Assembly: GCF_000237865.1 (NCBI RefSeq)
Contig: NC_017457.1
Location: 30,001 to 62,000, forward strand
DNA from: Haloquadratum walsbyi C23
Lineage (GTDB): Archaea; Halobacteriota; Halobacteria; Halobacteriales; Haloferacaceae
DNA: 32,000 bases
Reading direction: 5' to 3'
Shown here: in pieces, positions 988 through 31,608 of the stretch
Layout of the letters: every line of letters begins with the position of its first letter
Numbering within the stretch: the stretch's first letter is position 1
Program-made: the position numbers and the translations under genes
Notes under the pieces: model-generated
Database searches by the model: none
Told to the model about the DNA's origin: nothing
Seen by the model: only the letters and a program-made list of their open reading frames with translations

Positions 988-2334
988 TCAACTTCCCTCA
1001 AAAAAATTGTTTATTTGCGCATTGACCACAGATTTGATAAGATCTCCTTCGTGTTTAGCATCCTCAAGTCGAAAGTCAGTTTCGAGAGTCTCAACCACCA
1101 CTTCTGAGTCGTCAATAAACGTGTATTCCTTATGTACACCACTACCGAAACCACGTCCCCGTTTTTGTGACGTGACAAGATTATACGTCTCAGCCTCGTT
1201 CATGTATCTCAGATAAGATTCACGTGATTTTTCCTCAACATCTAAAATATCGACGAGAAACTGATACACTCGATAAGCAACTGTACTGGGAATAGCGTCC
1301 AAATTGCGCTGTGAGTAGACAGAAGAAACAGCAGTAGCGTAGAGTGAAAGCTTCTTTTGGGTCGATAGTCCCTGCATTTGGGTCAGTGTTCGATCCCGTC
1401 GAGCTTCTTTCTGGGCATGACGAACATGATTCTCATGAACCATATCCTCTGTTTCACGGTCGGCGATTTCTCCTGCCTTCCGGAATAAATCGATTGCTTT
1501 TCGGGCGTCACCATGATCCTGAGCGGCGAGAGCAGCGCTTAACGGGATGATTCCACCGTTAAGCACATCATCTTGGTATGCATCTTTACGACGTTTAAGA
1601 ATCGCTTGTAATTGATCTGCGTCGTAGTCGGAGAAGATGACGTCCTGTGGATTGAAAGAACTCTCCGCTCGTCCGTCAAGATTCTGCATGAATCGTGGAT
1701 CATTCGTAATTGCAGCGACGGATACGTGTCCTCCAATCCGACCAAGGTGTGATGCTCGAGATAATTGATAAAGCAGCTTCGAGTATGCCGGTTCATCATC
1801 TGGATTACGTCGTCGACCCAGCAAGAGGTCAATCTCGTCAAGAATGATGATGATTGAATCAAGGTTGTTGCTCAAGATCTCATAAAATCGATTTAGCTTC
1901 TGGTCAGTCGAGACACCACTCTCAGGGACACCAATATCGACACCAGCCTTCTGGGCAGCATTCTCTACGAGTCGGTAGATAGCCCGGTCATGAGAGCTGA
2001 CTGTTTGACAATTGATTTTAATAACGCCGAATCGATCTCCCTGTGAGTTGGCGAGTTCAAGAACCTGCTCGCAAACTGCATTGATAATGAGTGACTTCCC
2101 AGTCCCTGAGGGACCATAGAGAAGCATATTTGGCGGACGATTTCCCTGCAATGCCGGTCGTATATAAGAGATAATATTATCTAACTGATCATCACGACCA
2201 ACAATTCGGTCCTCATCGATTACAGTATCTAGCTCAAGAAGCCCTTTATTCCGAAAAACAGAGTTCTGATTCCCCTCCTGAAGACGAGCTTTGATAGACT
2301 GAGAGGTAGAATGTTGGTTGTCGTCATCAGCCAT
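988..2334 (-). CDS. orc1: Orc1/Cdc6 replication initiator (AAA+ ATPase)
   Basis: 448 aa. Walker A is GPSGTGKS and Walker B is IIILDEID, with sensor-like arginines and a C-terminal winged-helix-like region. Flanked by ORB-like boxes. Confidence 0.95.
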   Translation of the reverse strand: MADDDNQHSTSQSIKARLQEGNQNSVFRNKGLLELDTVIDEDRIVGRDDQLDNIISYIRPALQGNRPPNMLLYGPSGTGKSLIINAVCEQVLELANSQGDRFGVIKINCQTVSSHDRAIYRLVENAAQKAGVDIGVPESGVSTDQKLNRFYEILSNNLDSIIIILDEIDLLLGRRRNPDDEPAYSKLLYQLSRASHLGRIGGHVSVAAITNDPRFMQNLDGRAESSFNPQDVIFSDYDADQLQAILKRRKDAYQDDVLNGGIIPLSAALAAQDHGDARKAIDLFRKAGEIADRETEDMVHENHVRHAQKEARRDRTLTQMQGLSTQKKLSLYATAVSSVYSQRNLDAIPSTVAYRVYQFLVDILDVEEKSRESYLRYMNEAETYNLVTSQKRGRGFGSGVHKEYTFIDDSEVVVETLETDFRLEDAKHEGDLIKSVVNAQINNFFEGS

Positions 2335-5138: not shown

Positions 5139-5696
5139 ATGAGCTATTGTTCAGGCTGTGGAACAGAGCTTAGTGGAGAAGAAACATTCTGCCCAGACTG
5201 TGGGGAGTCGATTGATAAAAATAATACTGTAGAGACTAATCTAAGTGAATCAGCAGACACCAATCCAGCAAAAATAGCTGATACGTCTGAGAGTGAGGAT
5301 GACGGAGTTCAATGGAAACAGGTTGGAATGGCTGGAAGTCTTGCATTAATCCCTGCGTTCATTGCATACTTAGCGCTTTCAATTGCAACTGGAGGAGATC
5401 CTGTTGGTATCGTGTTCTTAATTTCACTCCCTGTATTTGGATATCTCCTTTACCAGCGATCGACATTCATTACAATGATTGGCGGGATGTGTTACTATCT
5501 CTCGATTGAGTTTCTCCTCAGCCCATTCTTTCTACTACTCTATACTGTCGCATTCGCAAGTGATAGCACTACCACTGCAGCTGGACAAGCGGGAGCTGCT
5601 ATTGGTGGGTTTGCACTAACGATTGCTGCATTCGTTGTTGGATTGCCACTAGCAATTGCATTTTATCTTGTTTCACGGCGATTAGATCAGACATAG
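5139..5696 (+). CDS. zinc-ribbon membrane protein (about 4 TM)
   Basis: N-terminal CxxC-N11-CxxC (CSGCGTELSGEETFCPDCG), then an acidic linker and four hydrophobic helices. Confidence 0.8.
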   Translation: MSYCSGCGTELSGEETFCPDCGESIDKNNTVETNLSESADTNPAKIADTSESEDDGVQWKQVGMAGSLALIPAFIAYLALSIATGGDPVGIVFLISLPVFGYLLYQRSTFITMIGGMCYYLSIEFLLSPFFLLLYTVAFASDSTTTAAGQAGAAIGGFALTIAAFVVGLPLAIAFYLVSRRLDQT

Positions 5697-5725: not shown

Positions 5726-6610
5726 ATGAGTTTTTGCACGAACTGCGGAACAGAACTCAGTGGAGGGGAGTCGTTCTGTCCAAATTGTGGAGAGTCTGTT
5801 CACTTAGATACTGATAGGGATGGTCTGCGAAACTCAACCGACGATAATCCAGCAGATGCTGGTGCTAAATCAACCAACGTAATTAAAAATAGTAGTATAG
5901 CAGAGGATCAGAAAGATAAGATAAGAGACATAAATCTCACTTTAGGTAAATCAATTGCATATCCTGTCGGATCATTATTAACTTTTTTAGGAGTTATCTC
6001 GTTATTTTCGGACATTGGCGCAGGTATACTAATCCTATTTGCAGGCATCATCGCACTTCCAATCATGCGGTCAAGAATCAAAGATAGAGTGGGTATAGAA
6101 ATAAATAGATGGGTTGCGTCAGCTATCGTAATCATATCAGTAGGGGCAGGAGTAGCAGTTTTACCATCGGAGACTGGCGGAGATAGCAGATCAGCTGTGC
6201 AAAATAATGAGAGTGAAATAAAAACAATTGAGCAACCGGCGAGCGAATTGACACCAACCATTGATAGCTTCGAAAGCGGATGGCGTGTTGTTGAGAGGCA
6301 GGGTGGAACTGCTGATTTTGTTTCCCCAGAGGCAAGCGAACGAGTGGTATACCAAGTCATGGTGTATAGGAACGTCAGCGAAGCACAATCGGCAGTGGTA
6401 TCTGAAGAGCCCGATAATATAGCCACAGATAACCCAGATTTTGGCGATGGAGGTTTCAAATATCAAATTGCTGATAGGGAATATAAGATAGTATTCTATA
6501 AAAAAAATGTCGTATGTAGCACAACATACGGAGCTGATGTCATGACATTCAACGCTGAGTCGAACGCAGACAAATTCGCCAAGATTTGCTTAGACTCAAT
6601 TGAAAGCTGA
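5726..6610 (+). CDS. zinc-ribbon membrane protein paralogue (about 3 TM plus C-terminal soluble domain)
   Basis: The N-terminus MSFCTNCGTELSGGESFCPNCGES is nearly identical to that of the upstream gene. It is followed by three hydrophobic helices and a 140-aa acidic C-terminal domain. Confidence 0.8.
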   Translation: MSFCTNCGTELSGGESFCPNCGESVHLDTDRDGLRNSTDDNPADAGAKSTNVIKNSSIAEDQKDKIRDINLTLGKSIAYPVGSLLTFLGVISLFSDIGAGILILFAGIIALPIMRSRIKDRVGIEINRWVASAIVIISVGAGVAVLPSETGGDSRSAVQNNESEIKTIEQPASELTPTIDSFESGWRVVERQGGTADFVSPEASERVVYQVMVYRNVSEAQSAVVSEEPDNIATDNPDFGDGGFKYQIADREYKIVFYKKNVVCSTTYGADVMTFNAESNADKFAKICLDSIES

Positions 6611-10677: not shown

Positions 10678-11745
10678 ATGATATTAAGTATAGAAAAAAG
10701 TGGAAAACTAGATGATAGTCTTGAGACGACAAAGCTCTCTGATCTGAATTTTACTGAACCGGAGAATCTTCAGGAGTGGATAATTGAGAGACCAGCTATC
10801 TTAGGTGAGGAACTACTTGTAATCACATCAGAGTATGCTGGATTCCAAGATACACTTGATAGGTTAGATATCCTCGCTATTGATACAGATGGAAAATTAG
10901 TTGTCGTTGAACTCAAACGGGACCGTGCTGATCAAACAACCGACCTCCAAGCAATCAAATACGCAAGCTACTGCGCCACTTTAACTGCAAAAGAAGTGCA
11001 GAAAGAATATCGCTCGTTTTGGACTGGACGAGATGGTGCAGAGATTGCGTCTGAGATCGAAACCGAAGATGTCAGTCAACAGTTCGCAGATTTCTTAACT
11101 GAGTTCGAGGGAGACCCGCCTATTACCGATGAAGGGTGGGTCGACTTTGAGCTTAGTGAGAGACCACGTATCATACTCGCCGCTGGGAGCTTTAGCACTG
11201 AAATTACGTCTCCAGTATTATGGTTGACCAACGAATATGGAATGGACGTTACTTGTATAAAAATCGAGGCTTATGAGCATCAGGAGCATGTGATTCTAAA
11301 CTCTCAACAGATTATTCCTATTCCTGAAGCTGAGGAGTATATGACCAGACGTCGTGAAAAGCGGGAGAAACAGCGAGAGTCCTCATCAGTCCGGACAATT
11401 GAACTACTTCTTAGAGAAAATGTGCTCTCTAAAGGTGATGAGGTCTACTTTAATTCTGACAAGGCACCGTCTGACCCCGACCCCGAGTGGTCTAGTTCCG
11501 ATGAATTTTGGCGAGCAGAAATTACTGGGGAACGAGGTCAAAGTAACAATGTGAAGTGGCGTGGGAAAGAATACTCATTCACCGGACTCACGAAGGAAGT
11601 GTTGTACCAATCAAATGACCGAGACAAAACTAACTCACTCAACGGCTACAAGTACTGGAAGTCTCCCGATTCTGATAACCGAACGCTAAGACAGCTCCGT
11701 GATCGTGAGGTAGGTGGTTCGGATCTAGGCGATCAAGATGAATAA
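10678..11745 (+). CDS. NucS/DUF91-like PD-(D/E)xK nuclease with C-terminal RAMA-like domain
   Basis: RLDILAIDTDGKLVVVELKRDRADQTTDLQAIKY matches the D...ExK...Q..Y core of NucS-type nucleases. The C-terminus FWRAEITGERGQSNNVKWRGKEYSFTGLTKEV...LNGYKYWK...LRQLRD resembles the RAMA domain found in restriction and methylase-associated proteins. Confidence 0.8.
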   Translation: MILSIEKSGKLDDSLETTKLSDLNFTEPENLQEWIIERPAILGEELLVITSEYAGFQDTLDRLDILAIDTDGKLVVVELKRDRADQTTDLQAIKYASYCATLTAKEVQKEYRSFWTGRDGAEIASEIETEDVSQQFADFLTEFEGDPPITDEGWVDFELSERPRIILAAGSFSTEITSPVLWLTNEYGMDVTCIKIEAYEHQEHVILNSQQIIPIPEAEEYMTRRREKREKQRESSSVRTIELLLRENVLSKGDEVYFNSDKAPSDPDPEWSSSDEFWRAEITGERGQSNNVKWRGKEYSFTGLTKEVLYQSNDRDKTNSLNGYKYWKSPDSDNRTLRQLRDREVGGSDLGDQDE

Positions 11746-15987: not shown

Positions 15988-16242
15988 TCACTGCTCCCAA
16001 TGAAGAAGATACAGAAGATAGACACTTGCACCAACAATAGTAGCACCAACCACAATCAAAACTAAGCTGGCTAAATCACTTATATGAAAAGCGAGTTGAA
16101 CTGTCTGAAGACCAACAAGAATGGTAAATACCGCTATTATCGTCCAAAATACAGTTGAGATAATTGATACCCCTGCTTCATGCACCCCTTCCCTTACAGC
16201 ACGACGAATATCAGGCTCAGTGAGGTCATCAGACTCACTCAT
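15988..16242 (-). CDS. small membrane protein (2 TM)
   Basis: Acidic N-terminus, then two hydrophobic helices (VSIISTVFWTIIAVFTILVGL and LASLVLIVVGATIVGASVYLLYLL). Confidence 0.6.
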   Translation of the reverse strand: MSESDDLTEPDIRRAVREGVHEAGVSIISTVFWTIIAVFTILVGLQTVQLAFHISDLASLVLIVVGATIVGASVYLLYLLHWEQ

Positions 16243-16396
16243 GAATTATTCTGATGTATGAATTCTCCCCGCCTGTAATTAAAATGAATGATCATCGTCT
16301 GGCGTAGAATATCCTCTACGATACTCCCACAATTCAAAATAGTTTTCAATACAAAGTGTCGATAATTATATATAAGATAAATTATACTATACTAGT

Positions 16397-16651
16397 ATGA
16401 CGACTGATCCAGATGAATATAGTCTCGATCCACATGATCTTGCCCCAGAATCAATCGCTAAACGTGTGCTAGAAAATAACGACTACAGGTGCGCATTCAA
16501 CCAGGTAAAGATACATCCAGAAGATGCGATGGTTGTCTATCGAACTCCAGCAATCCGACGTGATGAAGACGAGTATTCAGTCGAGCAACTACAGAAAATG
16601 TCTGATGAGGAATTGGATGAAATATTTTATGTAATTCTTGGAGGGGCTTAA
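16397..16651 (+). CDS. small acidic hypothetical protein (84 aa)
   Basis: ATG start, D/E-rich. An AT-rich promoter-like region lies immediately upstream. Confidence 0.55.
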   Translation: MTTDPDEYSLDPHDLAPESIAKRVLENNDYRCAFNQVKIHPEDAMVVYRTPAIRRDEDEYSVEQLQKMSDEELDEIFYVILGGA

Positions 16652-17197
16652 TCACTCCCTCTCAATTATTTTCCTTATTTCTCATAAAACTTAGAATCTA
16701 GAGGTATGCGTGATCCAACTCACACAGAGCTAATATAAGATCAAATCCTGAATTTCTCTAGGAAATCTGATTCAACGACGAAGCTCCTTGGTTCAATTAA
16801 GATACTTAATGAGTGTATATCACGAAATTTTCTTTTTCCGAATGAGTGTTCCTCTCGAAAATATTTGTCTAACATAATAGATCTCAGGCAACTTTTTTAT
16901 TAACATCGTTATTAAAAAACGATGGCAAATTACATCCAGCTGACAATTATTATTAAATTTGGATAGCACCCAAGATAGTGCAATCAAATAACTCAAGCAG
17001 GTAAGCAGGTAAGCAGCTGCACGAGGGCTGAATATAAGTAGAGCAATAATAAGCAATTCAACACAAGACAGATCAAAAGTATATGATGATTAAGCTTTGA
17101 TTTATGCAGTAACCACTCAAATAATAAATTGTGAAGCGTAATCGTATGACAGTTGGATACCAACTGACCACAGGAATCAGAAAAATAATGGAATAAT

Positions 17198-17350
17198 ACG
17201 ACTGTTGAATACGAACCAACTGAAGAGACTGAGAAAATACTACAAAAAATAGACGAAGGATGGACTGAAGAAAGAAGTGAGATTATTACAGACATATTAG
17301 AGTATTTTCATTTAAATTATACTGAATGGAAAAACGCAGATAGACGTTGA
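17198..17350 (+). pseudogene. start-less acidic coding remnant (...EGWTEERSEIITDILEYFHLNYTEWKNADRR*)
   Basis: Open frame with no start codon. It shares the motif ITDxxEYxxxY with a second remnant at 18023-18163. Confidence 0.3.
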
Positions 17351-17606
17351 GAATTATTCCATTTTATCTTTGATGACGATCGTGATAATGAGTGAGAACC
17401 TTACAAAAGTTGTTGAGATATTCCAAACTAGATAATTAGTTGAGAGGCTAAAATTAGCAAATTTTTATTAGAGCCATACCAATCCACATCGTTACAACTT
17501 TTTCAGCTAGTCTGATCTGAGAGCCCATATTCGTAAAAAGAGAACAAGAAAGGAAGAATATAATTAGTGAGAGGCTTACGAAAGTCTTGAAAGTATAAGA
17601 TCGAAT

Positions 17607-18010
17607 AATATTTTTTTTCGTCTCTATATACACAGAGGGTGTGAGTGTTCCCTCCAGATTTCTAAAACATTAAAAACAGACGTCTCAGCCAATTTTAAAA
17701 ATTTACATATTGAAAATATTACTTCCTACTACTACTACTACTACTACTATACTACTAATTATATACTAAACTACTTACTACTACTAAATAAGTTGTTACG
17801 TTTGTGATCTAATATGTAAGGTCAAAATATGGCTGCAGATTCTCAGTGAAATAATTCGTTTTTCAGTCTAAATTATTAGTTTTGCATGAATCCCTTTATC
17901 TGTATTCTGTGCGACTCTCATATGGTAGTACCGTAAGAATCTTATAATTTAGTAAGCTCTCAGTTCAGAGAGTTATACCCTCCCCACATATAGAGACGTA
18001 AAAAAATATT
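17607..18010. mobile_element. MITE-like ~400-bp element with ~35-bp terminal inverted repeats
   Basis: The left end is aatattttttttcgtctctatatacacagagggtg (17607-17641). The reverse complement of the right end (17976-18010) is aatatttttttacgtctctatatgtggggagggta. There is no ORF inside. Confidence 0.5.
17727..17747. repeat. (TAC)7 microsatellite with degenerate TAC-rich extension to about 17790
   Basis: Direct reading gives tac x7, then tatactactaatt...ctacttactactactaaat. Confidence 0.9.
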
Positions 18011-18022
18011 TTGAACAGTTGA

Positions 18023-18163
18023 AATCTTCACCTGAGATTAGAGCAAAATATTACTGATGCATTCGAATACGAAATACGATATTCTAACTTTATTATATCA
18101 TCCAACACAGAAACTGCTCAAATTGTTGAGCGATATTATTCTGACATGCTTGAATTAGAGTGA
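18023..18163 (+). pseudogene. start-less coding remnant (...EQNITDAFEYEIRYSNFIISSNTETAQIVERYYSDMLELE*)
   Basis: Open frame with no start codon. Related to the 17198-17350 remnant. Confidence 0.3.
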
Positions 18164-18392
18164 TACTTTTCTAAAACTTACAATCGAATCAAATTCAATT
18201 GCTATTGTATGCATAAAAATAACCTGAAATTCATAGAATTTAAATTCAATAGCGAATTTATTGTTATAACAAAGAAGCGAGTAAACCCGGAAATTAAGCT
18301 CCGAATATGTGAATTTGGGAGTGTGATTTAATTTGCAGAATATTGTGGATTAGTTCTTACTAAATAACTATTTTATACAAAATGCCGATATA

Positions 18393-19547
18393 TTGATGGG
18401 GGATGTATGCGTTTTCGTAATTGTTATGACAGTATCACAACGGGCAACAGTGTATCGTAATGAGTCTTCAGAAAGGTTTACAGCTACGTTAAGCTCTGGA
18501 GAGGTCGCATATATTACTAATAGAGCAAATAAGGCACATACTAAGGGTTTAGTTGTTTATGAAGTGCTTCATTTGGCACATTCGTATCTTTCAGACCGTT
18601 TAACCTTTGTTGAGGATCATATATATAAAACTCTTGCAGATGTTATCGGAGTCACTCAGTCTGATGATGTTCGCAAAAAAAATATTTTCAATGAAGAAGC
18701 TGATCCAATAAAGCAGTTGAAATATGAAGCTGACTCTGCAGATTACAGTGATTATTCTGAGATGAAGAAAACGGTGATATATCTTCCTGTAAGTACCATT
18801 GAAACACTGAAGGAAGAAAATGGACCGAGAGGCGTATCTCAAGCGATTTCTGAGGCAATTCATCAGGTTATCCGGATGCCATACAATACGAGATTTAACA
18901 AGCTCACAGTTATTGATCAATTCATCAAAATAAACAATGGAGATAAGGATAATATTGAGGAACTGCATCCTTTTGTTGAGTTGTTAATTGATGGAGATGA
19001 TGAAGAGTATAATATCAGACTATCTGATCGTATTAATTCTGACAGAGAAAGAGAGGATCAACTCTTAAGAGAAGATCTTAAACGAAGGGGGCTTAATTTA
19101 GACAGTCAGACGCCATGGGTTGGATTAAAACCAGATATGACATTCAATTTGAATGTACTTCGGCGTATAATTAGACTTGGTGTACTAAAGCAAAAGAAAG
19201 ATGTGAGAGTTAGAGCCTTGAAAAGAGCGATAGAGGGTTCTCAAAAGTTGAGGGAAGATTGTGGTCAAAATACCCAGCTCTATGTATATAAACGTGATTT
19301 TTATGATCACATTGAGGAAATTTTTGACTGCTCTAGACCAACCGCAAAAAGTTATGGCGATGCAGTTTTTCAGTCATTTAGAAGTGTCTTAGGCGTGTAC
19401 GATGATGGTAAGCTTGAAAGATTAATTGTTAAGCCATATAATTCAAGATCAAAATTTACACGAACGGGAATGGGTCAACCTTACGCATGTCTCAATAAGA
19501 AAAACTCAAATTATTCAATAGAGTATAAGCATAAATTCCTTGAGTGA
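18393..19547 (+). CDS. hypothetical protein with two RHH-like segments (384 aa; likely start a few codons downstream)
   Basis: Long ORF in a very AT-rich island. It is K/N/I-rich and much less acidic than its neighbours. FTATLSSGEVAYITNRA...VVYEVLHLA and KKTVIYLPVSTIETLKEE...VSQAISEAIHQVI fit a beta-helix-helix pattern. Confidence 0.7.
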   Translation: MMGDVCVFVIVMTVSQRATVYRNESSERFTATLSSGEVAYITNRANKAHTKGLVVYEVLHLAHSYLSDRLTFVEDHIYKTLADVIGVTQSDDVRKKNIFNEEADPIKQLKYEADSADYSDYSEMKKTVIYLPVSTIETLKEENGPRGVSQAISEAIHQVIRMPYNTRFNKLTVIDQFIKINNGDKDNIEELHPFVELLIDGDDEEYNIRLSDRINSDREREDQLLREDLKRRGLNLDSQTPWVGLKPDMTFNLNVLRRIIRLGVLKQKKDVRVRALKRAIEGSQKLREDCGQNTQLYVYKRDFYDHIEEIFDCSRPTAKSYGDAVFQSFRSVLGVYDDGKLERLIVKPYNSRSKFTRTGMGQPYACLNKKNSNYSIEYKHKFLE

Positions 19548-20057
19548 ATGCACTCGATAAGGATCATCGATGAACATCGATAGTGTATGAATTTGCTAAA
19601 TTTTTGTGTTGAAAATTATAATTTAAAACATGCATATATGTTTAATCTCGAAGTTCTTACACGGTTTTAGATGTTTTACGGTCTTGTCACAACATATATA
19701 CATAGATATTTCCCTTCTTTATTGAGGTATTGAGTCTGTGAGTCGTTTCTGGTGCTTGCACTCACTGTCCCCGTGAGAGACCGGAAGAGGTGAGCAAAAA
19801 ATTGGACGACTGATAGATATTATATCCGCAATTTATTTTAATGTGACATTAGGAACCCCGTGCGAATTGATCATGATACCTGTAATATCTTCAGAATTGA
19901 ATCCAGCAGTATCGTGGAATTCACCATACACAGCCAATTCGTATACCGTCTATATATTCATTCCTGACATCTTTTTGCACTCGACGATGCATTCTGATGC
20001 ATATCGTCACGACAAGATCAGCACAACACAGCTAAGTCGTTGTACTAGCATATCTGA

Positions 20058-21106: not shown

Positions 21107-21703
21107 GTGGCGATAGCCCCCCAAATTGTACTTCAATCTAGAGATAGCAGACATCATATGGGAGACGGAACAGCCGGGTCTTCAGTTCAGTATCAGACCC
21201 CGACACATGAGTATCTACGTCAGCGATTACAACAGATGGCTCCGGAGGCGTTCGAGGAGTTTGTAAGCGATGTGTGGGAGTTTCTTGGCTGGAATACACG
21301 TGTTGTTGGGAAACCAGGGGATCGTGGTATTGATGTCGTCGCTGTGACCGGTGATCAAAAGCAACTGATTCAAGCTAAGCGGTATGGACCATCGACATCG
21401 GTCGGGAGCCCTGAAGTCCAACAGTATGCAAGCCTCCGACTGCAAGAAGAGAATGTCGATCAAGTAACAATCGTGACAACGGGAACGTTCTCCTGGCAAG
21501 CACGTGAACTCGCACCTGAACTCGAAGTATTGTTAGTGAACGGTGAAGAGTTGATCGAGATGATTGACGAAATTGAGGCGTTCGAAGTCTTTGACGATCA
21601 CTTTGCGGATATCGAGCTATCACGTAATGTCGACGTAGATGCTACTGAATCTCCAAGCCGGTTCCGACGACTGCTTCGATGGGTTCGCTCACTATTTTCC
21701 TGA
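21107..21703 (+). CDS. Mrr-like restriction endonuclease domain protein (likely start at ATG 21158 or later)
   Basis: FEEFVSDVWEFLGWNTRVVGKPGDRGIDVVAVTGDQKQLIQAKRYGPSTSVGSPEVQQ matches the Mrr_cat core (D...D-x-QxK). The track start at 21107 is a GTG. Confidence 0.85.
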   Translation: MAIAPQIVLQSRDSRHHMGDGTAGSSVQYQTPTHEYLRQRLQQMAPEAFEEFVSDVWEFLGWNTRVVGKPGDRGIDVVAVTGDQKQLIQAKRYGPSTSVGSPEVQQYASLRLQEENVDQVTIVTTGTFSWQARELAPELEVLLVNGEELIEMIDEIEAFEVFDDHFADIELSRNVDVDATESPSRFRRLLRWVRSLFS

Positions 21704-22362: not shown

Positions 22363-22939
22363 ATGTGATCATTATACCTATCCAACATATGCTTCTCGCT
22401 TGATAATTGAATTGTTTGTAATGTAGAAGTGAGCTACCCCGACCTACTTAGCTGTCGCAGACGGCTTTCTTGTAAAAGGAGTCCTGCCCTTGTTCCGAAT
22501 AGTACGGGAACGACTGGCAGATATCATTCTAAGTTTCCCTGTCGAAGTCCTCAGAGTGGAATTATACAGATGAAATCCCCTGAAGCCAATGGCTAAATGA
22601 GGCTCAGGACCGATCATTGATTCACAGTTGCAACTAACGTCGAAGACGACTGAGATTCTTTTTATTCTAGTGATAGTATCGGCATATGTTTTGAATAACG
22701 TCTAAATGTACGACTTACAGTCCAAAAGCCTCACAAGTTATCCACTATCTATTAGACTGGAATTACTGTAGCTAAGACTCTATTTACATATCCTAACTTT
22801 GATTAAATATAGAGCAGGTTAGCATGGAGTGAGGTAGAGAGGGTTGAGCAGTCCGATAGACTCTCAATTTGCTTAGAGCAGATAGCTGAGTCCTTTGTAT
22901 CTACGTAGGTTATTTTACTTTCAATTACGCAATGGATAT

Positions 22940-25066
22940 ATGGAAATTAGCAAACTTCTTGATCGAGTAGAGTCGAATGCTATTGTTCTGCCAGAGTTCC
23001 AGCGTGAGTTCGTTTGGAAGAACTCACAGGCAAAGGAGTTGATGAACTCACTTTTCGAAGAGTTCCCTATCGGGAGTTTGCTTACGTGGGAAACAGAGAA
23101 TCCTCCTGAAATTAAAAACGAAGCAATAGACGAAGAAAAACATGCACTTTTTGAGGTCCTACTTGATGGGCAACAACGACTGACAGTATTGTATATGTTG
23201 ATTAAAGACGAAATCCCACCGTACTATACCGAGGACGATACCGAGAATGACCCACGGGATCTTTATCTCAACGTCGGCGATGGAAAGTTCCATTTTGAAA
23301 ACAAGATGACTCGTGAAGGCGTTGAGTGGGTTAGGGTAACTGACTGTTTCAATGGTGAGGTTGATGGGGTGACTATTGCTCAGAAAAAATTAGGTGATAA
23401 GCCAGAGCCTGTGTTGGAACTTTCAAAAGAGTATAACCAACAGATCGCTCAACTCCAAAATGTCACGACTCGTAGTATCCCAGTCGAGACCCTCCCGAAG
23501 TCAGCGGATATTCATGAGGCAATCGAACTCTTTGATAAAATCAACTCACAAGGAACACACTTGAGTGATGCAGAGTTGGCATTAGCGCATATGAGTGCTG
23601 AATGGGCGTATATCCGCCGGAATATGAAACAAAAGCAGGCTGAGTTAGCTACCCAAGGATTTGAGTTCAATCTCAATTTCTATGTGAAATGCATGATTGG
23701 AACTCTCACCGAAACAATGACCTACGAACAGGTATACAACGTGTCAGAGGATGAACTCAAATCTCAGTGGTACGAATTAGCTGGTAAGGATAATAAGGAT
23801 GGTATCTTTGATTACGTGATCAACGTTCTCCAAAATGACGGACAGATTCCGTCATCAGACTACATCAACACTCGTGACGTTCTCATTCCGTTTATCGTAT
23901 ATCTGAATAAACAGGAGAAGCAACTATCTCACGACGAGAAAACGCAGTTCCTGCGGTGGCTCTACTCAGGGATGATGTGGTCACGGTACAGTGGCTCATC
24001 AGATACGACCGTGGAACACGACATTTCACTCTTGGATGGGGAGTCTCCGACTGACCAACTCATGCAGGAAATTCGTGATGAGAGAGGACGGATAGAGGTG
24101 CAGGCATCTGACTTGCAGGGACGTGGGAAACGAACACGTCGGTTCTATAATATGGTACGGACCGTAATTCGTGCGAATGATCCTGTGGACTGGAAAACAG
24201 GTGAGCCACTCAAAGGGAGTTACGAACTGGAATCCCACCACATCTTCCCAAAGAGCAAACTCTATGAAGAGTATGACTCAGGTAACTCTACACACCGGAA
24301 GCTGGTCAACGAAATTGCTAATCGTGCTTTCCTCACTCCAGCCACAAACAAACAACTGGGAGACGAACTACCAGAGAGTTATTTACCAAAAATAATCGAA
24401 GACCATCCGAGTGCATTGGATTCCCAATTCATTCCAGATAATGGAGAGCTTTGGAAGTTACAAAATTACGAAGACTTCCTCGCCAAGCGGCGGGAATTAT
24501 TAGCTGATGCTATCAATGACTATATGGAAAACTTAGTAGTCGGAGAAGAAGGAAACGAAGAACAAGAGTCAGCAGACGAACTTATCCACAAAGGTGAGAA
24601 TACTCGGATTGAGTTCAAGGAGTCTTTCCTGTACGATGTATATCGAGAGCAGGCAAATAAAGATCTAAAAAAGGAGGTAGCAAAGGAAATCTGTGCGTTG
24701 ACCAATTCCGAAGGTGGAGCTGTAGTAATCGGGGTCAAAGATGATACGAAGGAGATCAAAGGTCTCGACCGAGACTACAATTTGATGGAAAAAGGTAAGG
24801 ATTCATTTGGACTCCAATTACGACAAGAAGTATCAAACAGACTAGGACAAATGATGGCTACCGCATATACTCATGTGAGGTTTGAAGAAGTTGATGAAAA
24901 AGAAGTCTGTGTCATCTGGGTTGATGATAGTCCTAAACCTGTTTTCTTTGAAGAGGATGATAGTGAGCAGTTCTATGTTCGAACCGGCACATCAGCTCAG
25001 CCTCTGAGCATTCAAGAAGCCAATAAATACATCGACGAACACTGGAATCAAAGCCCGATAGCATAG
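22940..25066 (+). CDS. GmrSD-family type IV restriction-like protein (DUF262 + DUF1524) fused to a C-terminal AlbA_2/Schlafen-like domain
   Basis: The N-terminus has LPEFQREFVW and LLDGQQRLTVLYML (DUF262/ParB-like NTPase). The centre has ESHHIFPKS...NEIANRAFLTPATNKQL (DUF1524 His-Me/HNH-like). The C-terminus has GENTRIEFKESF...EICALTNSEGGAVVIGVKDD.KEIKGL (AlbA_2). I take ATG 22940 as the start; ttatttta lies 23-30 nt upstream, and the track start at 22895 is a TTG. Confidence 0.9.
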   Translation: MEISKLLDRVESNAIVLPEFQREFVWKNSQAKELMNSLFEEFPIGSLLTWETENPPEIKNEAIDEEKHALFEVLLDGQQRLTVLYMLIKDEIPPYYTEDDTENDPRDLYLNVGDGKFHFENKMTREGVEWVRVTDCFNGEVDGVTIAQKKLGDKPEPVLELSKEYNQQIAQLQNVTTRSIPVETLPKSADIHEAIELFDKINSQGTHLSDAELALAHMSAEWAYIRRNMKQKQAELATQGFEFNLNFYVKCMIGTLTETMTYEQVYNVSEDELKSQWYELAGKDNKDGIFDYVINVLQNDGQIPSSDYINTRDVLIPFIVYLNKQEKQLSHDEKTQFLRWLYSGMMWSRYSGSSDTTVEHDISLLDGESPTDQLMQEIRDERGRIEVQASDLQGRGKRTRRFYNMVRTVIRANDPVDWKTGEPLKGSYELESHHIFPKSKLYEEYDSGNSTHRKLVNEIANRAFLTPATNKQLGDELPESYLPKIIEDHPSALDSQFIPDNGELWKLQNYEDFLAKRRELLADAINDYMENLVVGEEGNEEQESADELIHKGENTRIEFKESFLYDVYREQANKDLKKEVAKEICALTNSEGGAVVIGVKDDTKEIKGLDRDYNLMEKGKDSFGLQLRQEVSNRLGQMMATAYTHVRFEEVDEKEVCVIWVDDSPKPVFFEEDDSEQFYVRTGTSAQPLSIQEANKYIDEHWNQSPIA

Positions 25067-25108: not shown

Positions 25109-25400
25109 CTACTGGTTCTCAGTCAATTCAATTTCGATTGCGTGTTTTCGCTCAAGTGTTTTCGTATCGAGTCTATACAGATGCTTAAAAAAACGTTCTT
25201 CGGTCGAACGGTCAACAGCCGCTTCGATTCGGTGGTCTATTCGGTCACCCAGTCCCGCAAGTCGTAGAGATTTGAGTCGAGGAGAAGTCTTAGCTTCGTC
25301 TACCGACTCACGTAGTCTCCTGACGAAGCTTCGAGAGTATGACGATGCTGTTTTCTATTTCTCTCGTCACCGACAGCGTCACACTCGTTGTGACGGGTGA
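25109..25400 (-). pseudogene. possible frameshifted remnant (RHH-like N-terminal piece plus 66-aa C-terminal piece without a start)
   Basis: Minus-strand frame B reads ...VTLSVTREIENSIVILSKLRQETT*. An adjacent frame reads ESVDEAKTSPRLKSLRLAGLGDRIDHRIEAAVDRSTEERFFKHLYRLDTKTLERKHAIEIELTENQ* and ends at 25109. Confidence 0.3.
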
Positions 25401-25542
25401 ATCTGCCGACTGTTCGACAAACCTGTTTCATTTGGTGTAAACACTACTGAAACAAAGAGGTTTTTTCTTCAGTTGTTACTACAGAGAAGGGCTGGCATAT
25501 TGATTCTGTCGTCCTATTCCTCGCCAGTGATCGTGTTACTGA

Positions 25543-26343
25543 TTAAACGACTCCGGGCGTCACAGCGGTTTCTTCGTTTGCCGTCACAACACCCGTGACG
25601 TCATCAGCGAGTCCATCATCGAACACAACCGCTGTTTTCCCGCCACGAGTTTCTTTAATATCCACTCCACCGTCACCAAACTGTTTCAGAAAGTCAGCGA
25701 CTCGTTGAACTGTCTGTCTGTGAACTCGTTTGTCTTCTTGTGCAGTCAAAACATCTCGAATCCGAGTCGACGTGATAGCAATCCCAGCTGGCACGGATTT
25801 TCCATAGTCTTTGATTCGACGAGCAATTGATCGAGCTCTCTTTTGATTGGAAGTGAGATTCTCTACTGCAACGTTTTCTGGAAGTGCACACACTTGCTCA
25901 AGGGAAGTGGTCTTACTGCCACTCGGAGTGGTCGTATCCTCATCGTTGTCCTCAGATTGGGACGATTGCTTTTCAGAGGAATCAGCTGTGTCTGTTTCAA
26001 CTTTCTCCTCTACTTCGGTGAGTCTCTTCCTCGCTTTTGCATCATGCTCAATATGCTCTGCGAGGTTATCTTCAAGTTGCGTAATCTTTTTCCGATCCTC
26101 AGCGTTGGACTTCGCCTGCATGGCAACTTGCTCTCGAATCTCATCAATCTCCGCTTGCTTGTTAGTAAGTGATTGTTCAATCCCCTCGACAGCTGATTCG
26201 CCAATCTGTCTAACTGTATCAACTGTTTCTTGATCAGTATCAGTCGCCTCTAGACAATCTGCTGTTTTTTGGACAAATAGTGTCAATTGCTCAATACAAC
26301 CGATGTCGGTGCTGTTAAGACAGCGCAGTTCTTGTTTATTCAT
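25543..26343 (-). CDS. hypothetical coiled-coil protein with C-terminal wHTH-like domain
   Basis: 266 aa. Long acidic helical centre (EIDEIREQVAMQAKSNAEDRKKITQLEDNLAEHIEHDAKARKRLTEVEEK). The C-terminus ITSTRIRDVLTAQEDKRVHRQTVQRVADFLKQFG...GGKTAVVF is HTH-like. Confidence 0.7.
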   Translation of the reverse strand: MNKQELRCLNSTDIGCIEQLTLFVQKTADCLEATDTDQETVDTVRQIGESAVEGIEQSLTNKQAEIDEIREQVAMQAKSNAEDRKKITQLEDNLAEHIEHDAKARKRLTEVEEKVETDTADSSEKQSSQSEDNDEDTTTPSGSKTTSLEQVCALPENVAVENLTSNQKRARSIARRIKDYGKSVPAGIAITSTRIRDVLTAQEDKRVHRQTVQRVADFLKQFGDGGVDIKETRGGKTAVVFDDGLADDVTGVVTANEETAVTPGVV

Positions 26344-28168: not shown

Positions 28169-29251
28169 TTACGTTGGTAGTTCTGCATTCACTGGACCGA
28201 TATCTTCCCTGTAACGGAAGTATCCAGCTTCAGATAGCTCGTTTGCTAAGTGATGGCGATGACAAAAATGATCCTGATCTCCCTGTGGTTTTGGGAATTT
28301 TTCGATGCACATCAGTGCTGGCTTCCCAGACTCTTCGAGAAACTCACCGAACTGCTCAAATTTGTCGTCCTGATGTATACTCCACATATACCAATTTTCA
28401 AAACAATCGTGTCCAATGGCTTGCTGTTTATATGGTTCAACGATAACTCGTGGAACACCAAAGTCGGGCTTATGAATATACTCAATACCATCTATGTTTG
28501 AGAACTGATTTTCTAGTACATCTACGTTGAACTCTGGCTTGTACATTGATTCGCCGGAGGCACGGACATCGACCAAAATGTCTATTTCATTCTCCCGGAG
28601 TTCGTCAACTAACTCAGTGAATTCTTTTCCGCTGTACCCCACTGTGGCAATGGTATCATTCTTAAATCGCTCCAAACGATCACGAGCTTCGTCACGACTC
28701 CACCCGTTCTCAATGAGTCGGGTGGTAAACTCCTCCTGATCTTCTTCAGGGAGCTGAGCGATGACTAACCCTTTTCTTGCCGCTAAGTCCCCGCTCTTTA
28801 CACGTCTGTACACCGAATCAGCTAAATCCATCACCAGCGTGATTTTATCCTGAACTGTCCGTGGCGCCAACCCAGTTATATCACCAATTTCCTCTTCAGA
28901 GAGATCGTAGTCGGTGTAAAGTTCCTTGCAGAGTTCTCCGATCTCTTCATCTTTCATCTCTTTCTGCATTTTGTTCGTTTTCACAGCAAGACCACGAGCG
29001 CTTTCATCTCCGAGGTCTTTGATGGTAGCCTCAATCTCTGACCAGTTCAGACGCCGTGCAGCCTCAAGTCGATGACTTCCTGATATAACCTCATACTCAA
29101 CATCTTTTTGTCCCGACGCAGGGCGAGCGATGATAGGGTTCCATTGACCATCCTCGGCAAATGACTCTCTTATATCCTCCACATGGTCATCATCAATTTC
29201 CTCTCGAATCTGGAAGTCTGGCAAATCTATTTTGCTAAGAGCTACTTTCAT
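28169..29251 (-). CDS. ParB/Srx-like N-terminal domain plus HTH, fused to a DUF488 domain
   Basis: I take ATG 29251 (MKVALSKIDLP...) as the start. EYEVISGSHRLEAARRLNW is the ParB-type GxxR box and EEIGDITGLAPRTVQDK is an HTH. The C-terminus TIATVGYSGKEF...DILVDVRASGES.YKPEF...IEYIH.PDFGVP...ALMCIEKFP......CHRHHLA is the DUF488 pattern. Confidence 0.85.
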   Translation of the reverse strand: MKVALSKIDLPDFQIREEIDDDHVEDIRESFAEDGQWNPIIARPASGQKDVEYEVISGSHRLEAARRLNWSEIEATIKDLGDESARGLAVKTNKMQKEMKDEEIGELCKELYTDYDLSEEEIGDITGLAPRTVQDKITLVMDLADSVYRRVKSGDLAARKGLVIAQLPEEDQEEFTTRLIENGWSRDEARDRLERFKNDTIATVGYSGKEFTELVDELRENEIDILVDVRASGESMYKPEFNVDVLENQFSNIDGIEYIHKPDFGVPRVIVEPYKQQAIGHDCFENWYMWSIHQDDKFEQFGEFLEESGKPALMCIEKFPKPQGDQDHFCHRHHLANELSEAGYFRYREDIGPVNAELPT

Positions 29252-29552
29252 AACTACTTTTATACAGGATACGAAGTAAAACACTTTCTTAATAATTATA
29301 CAGTTGATACGATATGCATAGTGTGAGACATAGCTAGGCATATGCAGACGTTGATGACGTCTACTCCATGGCTCTGAAGTACTAGATGTACAGATCTTGT
29401 TCTGTCCTGATGCCTGTTTTATTATTCATTGATATATATTTATTATCTTCTGGGCTATCTATGGATAAGTATCTAAAAATCAATTAACTCAGAGTTCGGG
29501 CAGCTCTGAAATTAAGATCATATTGAGTCTTTCTCAAAATCTGGAGGCATAA

Positions 29553-30359
29553 TCAGTTCCGTTCGGCAGGATGTACAAATTCTGTACTAACCTTTGGATA
29601 CTCACTCCATAATGGGTCGTATATTGGAATGTTATCTTTCATCCATATAATATTAATAGAAATAAACGATGTTCGCTGATTATTCTGGTTCCCGACAAGA
29701 ATCCAGTGATTATAATTATTGCTATCAAATTGATAAAAACTTTCCAGCTTAGCAGCAGAACTAATATTATATTTTTCAATGGCACGATATCCGCCCCACT
29801 CTAACAAGGTTTTATTATGATATCCTTGTTGAGTTTGGCAGCTAGAACAAGTAAACTGAATCCGGATTTCTCTATCAAACTCTTCTCTTGTTTCGGGACG
29901 CCATCTTTCCATTTCCTCGAACAGCTTCGCTTGGGTCAACCCGTCACTATCATCTTCCCATTCTTTCAGCTCCAGCCCACTAATTGATTTGGGTCGTATG
30001 ATTCCAAGACTTCGACCTCTTTGTTTGATTGACTCAACGCATTCATCCTCAAGTTGGGTGAGAAGTGTAGCCCGCTTCTCACGTTGATATTCTCCCGTCT
30101 TTTTAACACAGGAAGATTGGTTTCTACGTCCCAACTTCCAACTTTCATCACGGTTATCTTTCGGGTTTCGCTTTGCCTCAACTTCAACGATGTCCCATCT
30201 TTTGAACAATTTTTTCCTAGGTTTACACGGGTAAAGTCGAATAAAGCCACGGTGTTTTGACCACGCACCAGTACAGGTAGTGAGATCTCCACCACTGATC
30301 TCTTCTGGAGCAGCTCTACCTAAAATAACGACATCTTCTAACGTTTGCGAGGGGGTCAC
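29553..30359 (-). CDS. orphan hypothetical protein (268 aa, GTG start)
   Basis: The only long frame here, and less acidic than its neighbours. It has an RWDIVEVEAK segment (a possible D...ExK), a CSSC pair and a WxLVGNQ C-terminal block. I recognise no family. Confidence 0.65.
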   Translation of the reverse strand: MTPSQTLEDVVILGRAAPEEISGGDLTTCTGAWSKHRGFIRLYPCKPRKKLFKRWDIVEVEAKRNPKDNRDESWKLGRRNQSSCVKKTGEYQREKRATLLTQLEDECVESIKQRGRSLGIIRPKSISGLELKEWEDDSDGLTQAKLFEEMERWRPETREEFDREIRIQFTCSSCQTQQGYHNKTLLEWGGYRAIEKYNISSAAKLESFYQFDSNNYNHWILVGNQNNQRTSFISINIIWMKDNIPIYDPLWSEYPKVSTEFVHPAERN

Positions 30360-30547: not shown

Positions 30548-30787
30548 TTATTCCTCTCCTGCTTCTTGTGCTTCGATAGTCAATTCGCCCCGTTCAGTTA
30601 GTGAATAGACCTTCCGACGCCCCTCTTGTTTTCCTTTAATATACCCAGCGTCCTCCAGCTGTTGCATATGCTCATATATCGTAGGGCCTTGCTTCCCGAG
30701 TTCATCTGCTAGCGCATAGCCGTGTCGTGGCTCTTCACGGAGCTTTTCGAGAATCTGGCGTTTTGCGTCTGTCAGCGTAAGTCCCAT
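30548..30787 (-). CDS. PadR-like winged-helix transcriptional regulator
   Basis: RHGYALADELGKQGPTIYEHMQQLEDAGYIKGKQEGRRKVYSLTERGE matches the PadR hallmark (hGY...Y..L..Le..G.i....grrk.Y.lT..G). Divergent from the methyltransferase operon. Confidence 0.85.
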   Translation of the reverse strand: MGLTLTDAKRQILEKLREEPRHGYALADELGKQGPTIYEHMQQLEDAGYIKGKQEGRRKVYSLTERGELTIEAQEAGEE

Positions 30788-30870: not shown

Positions 30871-31608
30871 ATGGTGGAACAGACAAGTAACTCTATGTCC
30901 AAAAAGACTAGTAATCAAATGTATATCGTTGATCTCAGGGAAGCAGTTTCCAGTAATCAGACGCTTAGGGAGGCACTCACTGAGTCAAATAGCCTCTGGA
31001 AGCCTCTCTATAACCGCATGGGTTCTTCAGAAACTCTTTGGATCATCGTTTCAAATGAATATCGAGGCGGGAAAATGTGGCCTGCTGCGATGGCTGCAGC
31101 TGATTACATTAGAAATCAAGCGAGTTTTATTTTGAAAAATACTATTACCGTCCATAATATTTCTGATGATAATAATGTTGCGGATATGATTTCTGCGTAC
31201 AATGAAATTCTCTTTTTTGTTAAAGACAAACGTAATTATCAGTTTCACAAAGATGAAATTCGTGTCTCACATGTGTATGAAGGAAATGAGTGGGGAGGTG
31301 AGAGAGAGAAAGGAACTAGCGCATACCATGATACTGAAGTCCGTCGGTACAACCCAGACGGGAAGGATCCTGGTAATGTGTGGCTTGAGGAAGACCGATC
31401 ACAAACCCCAAATCAAGAACTTGACGAAACCAGACCGATTCCATTTGATGAAAGTATCCGCCGATGCATTCGGGTTGGGTCGCAGGAAAAAGAAAAAATC
31501 CACACCATTTGGGCCACTAATCTAGCAGATATCATAACGTGCGAAAATCGGGAATTCATTGAAGTTGATGTCGATGTCCTCCAATCTGAGTCCGAGAGAA
31601 AATCATGA
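30871..31608 (+). CDS. catalytically degenerate paralogue of a beta-class N4/N6 DNA methyltransferase (start may be ATG 30895)
   Basis: It retains MTase framework blocks: LWIIV..., FILKNTITVHN, YNEILFFVKDKRNYQFHKDEIRVSH, YNPDGKDPGNVWLEE and RPIPFDESIRRCIRVGS. No (D/S)PPY motif is present, and the DPFxGSGTT AdoMet site is replaced by HTIWATNLAD. Its stop overlaps the ATG of the next gene (ATGA at 31605-31608). Confidence 0.75.
   Translation: MVEQTSNSMSKKTSNQMYIVDLREAVSSNQTLREALTESNSLWKPLYNRMGSSETLWIIVSNEYRGGKMWPAAMAAADYIRNQASFILKNTITVHNISDDNNVADMISAYNEILFFVKDKRNYQFHKDEIRVSHVYEGNEWGGEREKGTSAYHDTEVRRYNPDGKDPGNVWLEEDRSQTPNQELDETRPIPFDESIRRCIRVGSQEKEKIHTIWATNLADIITCENREFIEVDVDVLQSESERKS

Follow-up and report, generated by a model that had tools for sequence, protein, structure and literature searches.

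The GmrSD-type enzyme BrxU and the Schlafen-fold antiviral proteins are the closest described counterparts of the gene analysed here, an open reading frame (ORF) at positions 22940–25066 (+) of a 32,000-nucleotide stretch of Haloquadratum walsbyi C23 DNA (NC_017457.1, positions 30,001 to 62,000; the whole stretch is called the window below). Defence by BrxU and by its relative HEC-06 requires the DGQQR and HNH residues: the substitutions Q79A/R80A in DGQQR abolish defence by HEC-06, and BrxU with its HNH-motif D or H mutated loses defence (Payne et al., bioRxiv 10.1101/2024.01.29.577857). In the same study, HEC-05 is BrxU itself (99.2% identity). RorSlfn5, SLFN11/12/13/14 and SAMD9 have an antiviral role via tRNA cleavage, and in RorSlfn5 the Ex4DxK motif is needed, the E15A/D20A variant losing both defence and Mn-dependent tRNA cleavage. 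One catalogued class of DUF262-Slfn fusions, pSlfn7, comprises 109 members and has a defence score of 0.76, and EcoSlfn7 (E. coli UC4224), a member of this class, cut the plating of T7 by ~540-fold, the effect being best on T7 (Taboada et al., Nat Microbiol 2026). A 2015 phylogenomics paper on GmrSD described the extra domains DUF4268, DUF4357 and DNA_binding_1 and did not mention an AlbA_2 fusion, and our literature search for the pairing of DUF262 with AlbA_2 found nothing.

By exact-sequence look-up, the window protein was WP_014554916.1 (CCC41926.1) of H. walsbyi C23, encoded by plasmid PL100 (100,258 bp), which bears out the haloarchaeal setting proposed in an earlier note made from the DNA alone (hereafter the original prediction). 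We lean towards the reading that the gene encodes a stand-alone, single-polypeptide antiviral enzyme, in which a BrxU-family type IV restriction module and a pSlfn domain would both be functional nucleases. The architecture is known. UniRef already names the protein 'DUF262/DUF1524/AAA-4 domain protein', AAA-4 being the former name of PF04326. Taboada et al. (Nat Microbiol 2026) also list the exact gene, in their Supplementary Tables 1 and 2, as NC_017457.1 52940–55066 (+), WP_014554916.1, DUF262.pSlfn, class pSlfn7, coordinates that equal those in the window plus 30,000. Its three annotated domains and its class as a Schlafen fusion were therefore already on public record, and the novelty implied by the original prediction falls away.

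Domain architecture

The ORF comprised 708 codons without internal stops, followed by a stop codon, while the opposite strand was stop-rich. The ATG at 22940 was taken as the start rather than the upstream TTG at 22895, as homologues share that methionine. Matches to PF03235, HEC-05 and PF04326, together with Foldseek, gave the same domains in the same order as originally proposed. The motifs quoted at that time (DGQQR, H-x-x-P...N...N and IEFK...) were all located in the translation: DGQQR at residues 76–80, HHIFP at 433–437, NEIANRAFLTPATN at 457–470, IEFK at 557–560 and ALTNSEGGAVVIGVKDD at 586–602. NCBIfam profiles gave no match to the protein. The features of the gene were as follows.

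22940–25066 (+): complete ORF, BrxU-family GmrSD plus Schlafen, WP_014554916.1 (translation; exact look-up; alignment for the start codon)
22946–23590 (+): DUF262/GmrSD_N, ParB-like NTPase, residues 3–217 (Pfam PF03235, E = 1.3e-27; sequence match to BrxU 7p9k)
23165–23179 (+): DGQQR nucleotide-hydrolysis motif, residues 76–80 (invariant in 82/82 aligned homologues and 33/33 genome ORFs)
23591–24139 (+): alpha-helical linker between DUF262 and DUF1524, residues 218–400 (all-helical AlphaFold2 model; HEC-05 coverage; BrxU alignment)
24140–24502 (+): DUF1524/GmrSD_C His-Me finger, residues 401–521 (Pfam PF07510, 21.9 bits against a cut-off of 23; HEC-05; Foldseek match to BrxU)
24236–24250 (+): HHIFP, catalytic-His motif of the His-Me finger, residues 433–437 (aligns with DHIYP of BrxU)
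24308–24349 (+): NEIANRAFLTPATN, with the asparagines of the H-N-N finger (N461, N470), residues 457–470 (invariant; alignment with the BrxU asparagines)
24542–24562 (+): acidic disordered inter-domain linker, residues 535–541 (the sole internal segment with a pLDDT below 50 in the AlphaFold2 model)
24572–25042 (+): Schlafen/AlbA_2 nuclease-type domain, residues 545–701 (Pfam PF04326, residues 553–689; Foldseek; family profile)
24596–24619 (+): ENTRIEFK, Schlafen catalytic Ex4ExK motif, residues 553–560 (E553, E558 and K560 invariant)
24731–24745 (+): GVKDD, residues 598–602, in which D601 is the conserved acidic residue (aligns with the second Asp of 'GVDD' in SLFN13, 5yd0)

The BrxU-like body

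The PADLOC model HEC-05, which represents the BrxU family, spanned residues 2–530 (E = 4e-43). A profile of 82 homologues, with identities down to 42%, matched BrxU (7p9k) at 9e-26, with SHHIFP falling on DHIYP and N461 and N470 on the BrxU asparagines. In this alignment H433, H434, F436, P437, N461 and N470 were invariant. An AlphaFold2 model computed from the homologue alignment had a mean predicted local distance difference test score (pLDDT) of 88.8, and Foldseek against the PDB matched it to 7p9k with E = 5.6e-14 and a probability of 1.0 over ~612 aligned columns, the TM-score being low (0.35–0.41), as expected with flexible multi-domain proteins. With its DUF262 domain and DGQQR motif, its DUF1524 His-Me finger and its overall modelled fold, the body is predicted to belong to the GmrSD/BrxU family, and the kinship with GmrSD, BrxU and SspE suggested by the original prediction is borne out. 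Given the invariance of H433, H434, N461 and N470 in the window protein's clade, we take the His-Me finger to be active.

The Schlafen tail

SLFN_AlbA_2 (PF04326) matched residues 553–689 with E = 2.5e-18 and 67.1 bits, well above its cut-off of 25.3, so the AlbA_2 assignment of the C-terminal region held up against the profile. With the last ~155 residues of the model, Foldseek returned a probability of 1.0 to the AlbA_2 protein 3lmm, to SAMD9 (9o0d, 7ksp) and to SLFN14, SLFN13, SLFN11 and SLFN5; the Schlafen-type matches, over ~150–185 columns, included 5yd0, 7fex, 9uie and 7cux. The family profile matched SLFN14 at 1e-9 and SLFN12 at 2e-8. The Ex4ExK residues (E553, E558, K560) were invariant in all 82 aligned homologues at 42–86% identity and were kept in every one of 33 fused ORFs collected from genomes, at identities down to 27%. 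Among the 82 homologues G598 was likewise invariant, and V599 and D601 were at least 90% conserved. The glutamates of the motif aligned with the catalytic lobe of SLFN13 and SLFN14, E558 falling on SLFN14 E211, which is replaced in the 'E211A' structures, and D601 presumably corresponds to D248 of SLFN13.

An AlbA_2 match above threshold, the Ex4(E/D)xK motif and a modelled SLFN/SAMD9 nuclease fold mark the tail as a predicted pSlfn domain. The original prediction had cast it as a nucleic-acid-binding module that adds specificity or sensing. The catalytic Ex4ExK is kept, however, and HEPN-like tails occupy the same place in sister proteins, and the tail is most likely an RNase effector rather than a mere binding module. 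This reading is based on the constancy of Ex4ExK, the alignment with SLFN13 and SLFN14, the loss of the HNH histidine in some fused homologues and the HEPN-like tails of the sisters, the last two of which are described below.

Distribution and variation of the family

The fused protein was widespread. In a database clustered at 90% identity, more than 100 clusters at 42–99% identity were full-length (~700 aa) with both Pfam domains, and came from sources including Haladaptatus, Halalkalicoccus, Salinirussus, Halosimplex, Bipolaricaulota, Halanaerobiales, Armatimonadota and Aenigmatarchaeota. Near-identical copies of the window protein were present in independent metagenomes. Searched exhaustively, the representatives at 50% identity yielded 417 matches at E <= 1e-30; among the best 150 of these, fragments included, ~57 aligned through residue ~700. 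In species-level genomes, a fused ORF was found at 33 loci (labelled L with a number where they need to be told apart), with 27–74% identity in the GmrSD part; 32 of the ORFs were complete, at 693–735 aa, and that of L020 was cut by a contig end. The bacterial loci were from Chloroflexota, Planctomycetota, Acidobacteriota, Actinomycetota, Gemmatimonadota, Proteobacteria, Verrucomicrobiota and Elusimicrobia, and the archaeal ones from Woesearchaeota and Aenigmatarchaeota. Homologues also occurred in mesophilic bacteria, such as Methylobacterium sp. E-045 and an Erythrobacteraceae isolate, which would ease testing of the three-domain form.

The taxonomic survey suggested with the original prediction thus placed the tripartite architecture in many bacterial phyla, in DPANN archaea and in haloarchaea. 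The more than 100 full-length clusters and the 33 genomes with a fused ORF support a genuine single ORF, and a fusion artefact or pseudogene was ruled out by the intact ORF and the recurrence of the fused form; the exceptions were L013, which has no Slfn, and L047, which is disrupted. A viral origin of the fusion was rejected as well, as a search of IMG/VR gave no three-domain viral copy and all matches ended by residue ~536.

At six of the 33 fused loci (L021, L027, L030, L031, L032 and L034) the position of the BrxU catalytic histidine was replaced, the motif reading RHYIFP, RHYVFP or NCYVFP, and the second asparagine of the finger was also gone. All six ORFs keep Ex4ExK, so the Schlafen site is the constant one across the family. 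Judged by their motifs, these ORFs look like cases of lineage-specific decay of the DNase.

The C-terminal slot

Other tails were found in the place of the Schlafen domain. Three BrxU-like sisters at 29–33% identity (L041:2-2020, L045:6001-8067 and L055:7516-8085) had a non-Schlafen tail. In this group of 673–695 aa proteins the same C-terminal position carried motifs of the Rx4H type (RNTLAH, RNSIRH and RNALKH); HEPN_Swt1 matched L041 and L055 at a sub-threshold level (E about 7e-4) and did not match L045, and L055 has an internal stop codon. These tails are probably HEPN RNases in the Schlafen slot. A third type of tail, ~100–120 aa long, was found in L040:6001-7893, L042:915-2861 and L044:6001-7914, with the common motif 'DLAWP(D/S)G.Q.GLS.PV..(M/L)I(D/N)E'; a Pfam search of these three tails gave no match.

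In a neighbour-joining tree of the GmrSD part, which has no support values and serves as a rough guide, one large clade held most of the Slfn-bearing proteins together with HEPN-like and 'DLAWP'-tailed forms. L041 and L045 fell within this main Slfn clade, L055 grouped with bare two-domain forms, and a small second Slfn group (L036-38) lay among bare two-domain proteins; L013 was sister to the haloarchaeal pair. This pattern suggests a modular C-terminal slot that may have undergone gains, swaps and losses.

In the Anaerolineae metagenome-assembled genome contig JALWAP010000053.1, a separate gene starts at ~2737, 18 nt downstream of the GmrSD-Slfn gene (L019:622-2718). This gene begins with a close paralogue of the Schlafen domain in the fusion (MNIKDLIAGGESQTVEFKSSLQWDV...), after which it runs on into further sequence, and its product could possibly be a second Schlafen subunit.

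Proposed function and alternative explanations

The enzyme is proposed to form a dimer, as BrxU does. Its DUF262 module would be the sensor or switch, binding nucleotide and foreign DNA, possibly modified, and the His-Me finger would cut the invading DNA. Once activated, the Schlafen domain would cleave tRNA or other RNA and halt translation, which would provide a second layer of the abortive-infection type. Both nucleases are taken as functional because all three active sites are intact in the window protein and in its relatives at or above 42% identity. That the enzyme depends on DNA modification, as the original prediction had it, is an assumption; the only tested DUF262-Slfn fusion, EcoSlfn7, acts best on T7, whose DNA is not known to be modified.

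Several points weigh against two functional nucleases in one chain. The Pfam score of GmrSD_C is marginally below its threshold, although the DUF1524 assignment holds because HEC-05, the family-profile alignment and Foldseek agree on it. Ex4ExK marks the Schlafen family as a whole, so its conservation alone is no proof of catalysis. The AlphaFold2 model has a single Schlafen lobe, compared with the two-lobe pseudo-dimer of the mammalian proteins, and activity would thus depend on oligomerisation. Finally, the phenotype of EcoSlfn7 transfers only loosely to the window protein, at 23% identity over DUF262 and with no HNH domain in EcoSlfn7.

Some of these points would suit a tail that is a non-catalytic nucleic-acid-binding module, with the His-Me finger as the sole nuclease. 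The tail has just one lobe, its fold matches include DNA/RNA-binding deposits (hSAMD9_DBD with DNA, 7ksp, and SLFN5 N-domain entries), and the finger is invariant in the window protein's own clade. We nevertheless consider this explanation unlikely: Ex4ExK and D601 vary little or not at all, the six fused homologues that lost the HNH histidine yet retained Ex4ExK are hard to explain with HNH as the sole effector, EcoSlfn7 defends without an HNH domain, and HEPN-like RNase tails fill the same slot in sisters. The same six homologues, with Slfn intact, could instead be read to mean that the Schlafen RNase is the sole relevant effector and that the GmrSD part, His-Me finger included, is a DNA/nucleotide-sensing regulator. 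EcoSlfn7 consists of DUF262 and Slfn only, and the authors of the pSlfn study interpret fused domains in general as sensors (Taboada et al., Nat Microbiol 2026). Such a regulator has some limited chance of being the right description, but the invariance of H433, H434, N461 and N470 over 82 sequences argues for selection on catalysis, and the GmrSD part is of the BrxU family over its full length; BrxU itself cannot defend without its HNH residues.

It is highly improbable that the gene has no immune role at all, whether as a nuclease for plasmid addiction or housekeeping or as an inactive remnant on a plasmid in decay. PL100 (43.9% G+C) is 70% coding with 14 pseudogenes, is dispensable and is readily lost in culture (PMC3119063), and defence genes are missing from the neighbourhood of ~30% of pSlfn genes (Taboada et al., Nat Microbiol 2026). 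However, the ORF is intact and recurs almost unchanged in independent metagenomes, its active-site residues are all conserved, defence genes flank both the window gene and its homologues, and defence by related proteins has been demonstrated in experiments. The reading that we favour, a one-chain enzyme with a DNase and an RNase, would combine direct DNA restriction with a translation-shutdown back-up, and Schlafen-type immunity, which is conserved up to humans, would then reach archaea.

A more specific version of this arrangement, 'restriction plus guard' in one chain, strikes us as an unlikely elaboration. In it, a Schlafen tRNase kept latent by the BrxU-like body would be freed when the body engages foreign DNA or is blocked by a viral anti-restriction protein, and the C-terminus of BrxU-like enzymes would serve as a general plug-in slot for suicide RNases. 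If true, this would be the first demonstration of Schlafen-based immunity in an archaeon.

Genomic neighbourhood

The window gene stands alone: ~1 kb upstream of it contains no listed ORF of at least 70 aa, and its downstream neighbour is convergent. The A/T-rich TTATTTTA lies 23–30 nt 5' of the ATG at 22940, a position that fits a haloarchaeal TATA box with a leaderless mRNA, and may possibly serve as the promoter.

22910–22917 (+): A/T-rich TTATTTTA, candidate archaeal TATA box for a leaderless transcript (sequence reading)

Repeats flanking the gene were rejected as a meaningful element, as they resemble chance matches. Around homologues the neighbours varied by locus and included integrases and type I and type IIG restriction-modification genes. 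An operon partner was rejected on this ground, and the variable neighbours point to a single-gene system in variable islands.

The surrounding region of the window looks like a defence island. A 198-aa Mrr_cat nuclease is encoded 1.2 kb upstream, at 21107–21703 (+) (Pfam E = 3.6e-24; PADLOC mREase_IV, PDC-S02). Near the window gene, an Mrr-type nuclease ('LmuA_effector_Mrr') and two methylases have been flagged (Taboada et al., Nat Microbiol 2026), and the gene at 21107–21703 is probably this catalogued nuclease. Both components of PDC-M19, a PADLOC candidate system, were present: PDC-M19A, a ParB_N-HTH_ParB-DUF488 fusion at 28169–29341 (-) (E = 8.7e-20), and the adjoining PDC-M19B gene at 29553–30359 (-) (E = 8.1e-13), whose product has no Pfam match. 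Beside this pair were a PadR regulator (30548–30787) and an N6_N4 DNA methylase (30871–31608). Pfam and PADLOC scans of the 21 other ORFs of the window found none of the BREX genes (PglX, PglZ, BrxC) and no SspABCD genes.

Elsewhere in the window, an Orc1/Cdc6 gene (Cdc6_lid, AAA and Cdc6_C domains) lies at 988–2334 (-). It is probably one of the two cdc6 genes of PL100, which have been linked to plasmid replication origins (PMC3119063). Tandem zinc-ribbon-headed proteins without assigned function are encoded at 5139–5696 (+) and 5726–6610 (+). The product of 10678–11745 (+), 355 aa long, includes a NucS_C-like nuclease domain (E = 1.6e-6). Positions 16001–20000 had a very low G+C content (33–37%) and few long ORFs, and a 384-aa ORF at 18393–19547 had no match in Pfam or PADLOC. 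A scan of the window for tRNA genes found none.

Searching PLSDB with a 4-kb query gave short matches only, in other haloarchaeal plasmids and confined to the region downstream of the window gene. Positions 25368–25914, which overlap the convergent 266-aa ORF at 25543–26343, were 80.5% identical to a hypothetical gene of PL47 of H. walsbyi DSM 16790 and were the sole part of the query common to this otherwise unrelated plasmid.

Comparison with known systems

EcoSlfn7 (WP_028985442.1) resembles the window protein in its N-terminal DUF262, its C-terminal Schlafen domain with Ex4ExK, its stand-alone gene and its assignment to pSlfn7. Unlike the window protein, it is 589 aa long (119 aa shorter) and matches GmrSD_N and SLFN_AlbA_2 with no match to DUF1524/HNH; the identity between the two extends over DUF262 only, where IDGLQR replaces DGQQR. 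The best PADLOC models also differ, being NsnA and PD-T4-2_A for EcoSlfn7 and HEC-05 for the window protein. The window protein therefore does not have the architecture of EcoSlfn7. As judged from these sequences, pSlfn7 is heterogeneous and the window protein falls in a distinct three-domain, BrxU-derived subgroup. The published class thus mixes two architectures, with and without a His-Me DNase, of which the tested member represents solely the version without. The three-domain version is a common one and spans a broad phylogenetic range. The EcoSlfn7 gene itself (L001:8001-9770, NZ_CP104472.1) lies in a P2-like prophage between a portal gene and a DinI-like gene, a site that resembles a prophage accessory-gene hotspot. 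Directly next to the 5' end of the EcoSlfn7 gene is a 195-nt pseudogene that contains an internal stop.

In BrxU, as in the window protein, DUF262 is followed by a helical linker and then DUF1524, and the motifs common to both include QREFVW and DGQQR. The serine of RLFDS in BrxU also has a counterpart in the window protein, in ELMNS, where S37 is invariant. The two are 16–19% identical in the Foldseek alignment. In contrast to the window protein, BrxU ends after the nuclease domain, without a Schlafen domain, and is BREX-associated, whereas the scans of the window found no BREX genes. The Schlafen/AlbA_2 fold and the Ex4(E/D)xK motif of the tail are common to RorSlfn5, SLFN11/12/13/14 and SAMD9. 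RorSlfn5 and the mammalian SLFNs, however, have other partner domains (an Ig-like sensor, a helicase), and the mammalian proteins have two lobes where the window protein has one.

A ParB(DUF262)-HNH-HEPN fusion has been described in Halobacterium as VNG7073 (Anantharaman et al. 2013, PMC3710099). Like the window protein, VNG7073 and L041, L045 and L055 combine a GmrSD-type body with a C-terminal domain of an RNase superfamily, and such proteins also occur in haloarchaea. The difference lies in the tail, which is HEPN (Rx4-6H) in VNG7073 and its HEPN-tailed relatives, with sub-threshold HEPN calls in L041 and L055, compared with Schlafen (Ex4ExK) in the window protein.

EcoprrI-PrrC combines a type Ic restriction enzyme and an anticodon nuclease that is latent. 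It resembles the proposed enzyme in that DNA restriction is physically coupled to a tRNA-cleaving back-up effector, but it is a two-component complex built from unrelated protein families, while the window protein is a fusion for which the guard logic is hypothetical. If that logic were to hold, the window protein would be a single-chain analogue of EcoprrI-PrrC with a slot that takes Schlafen, HEPN and 'DLAWP' tails.

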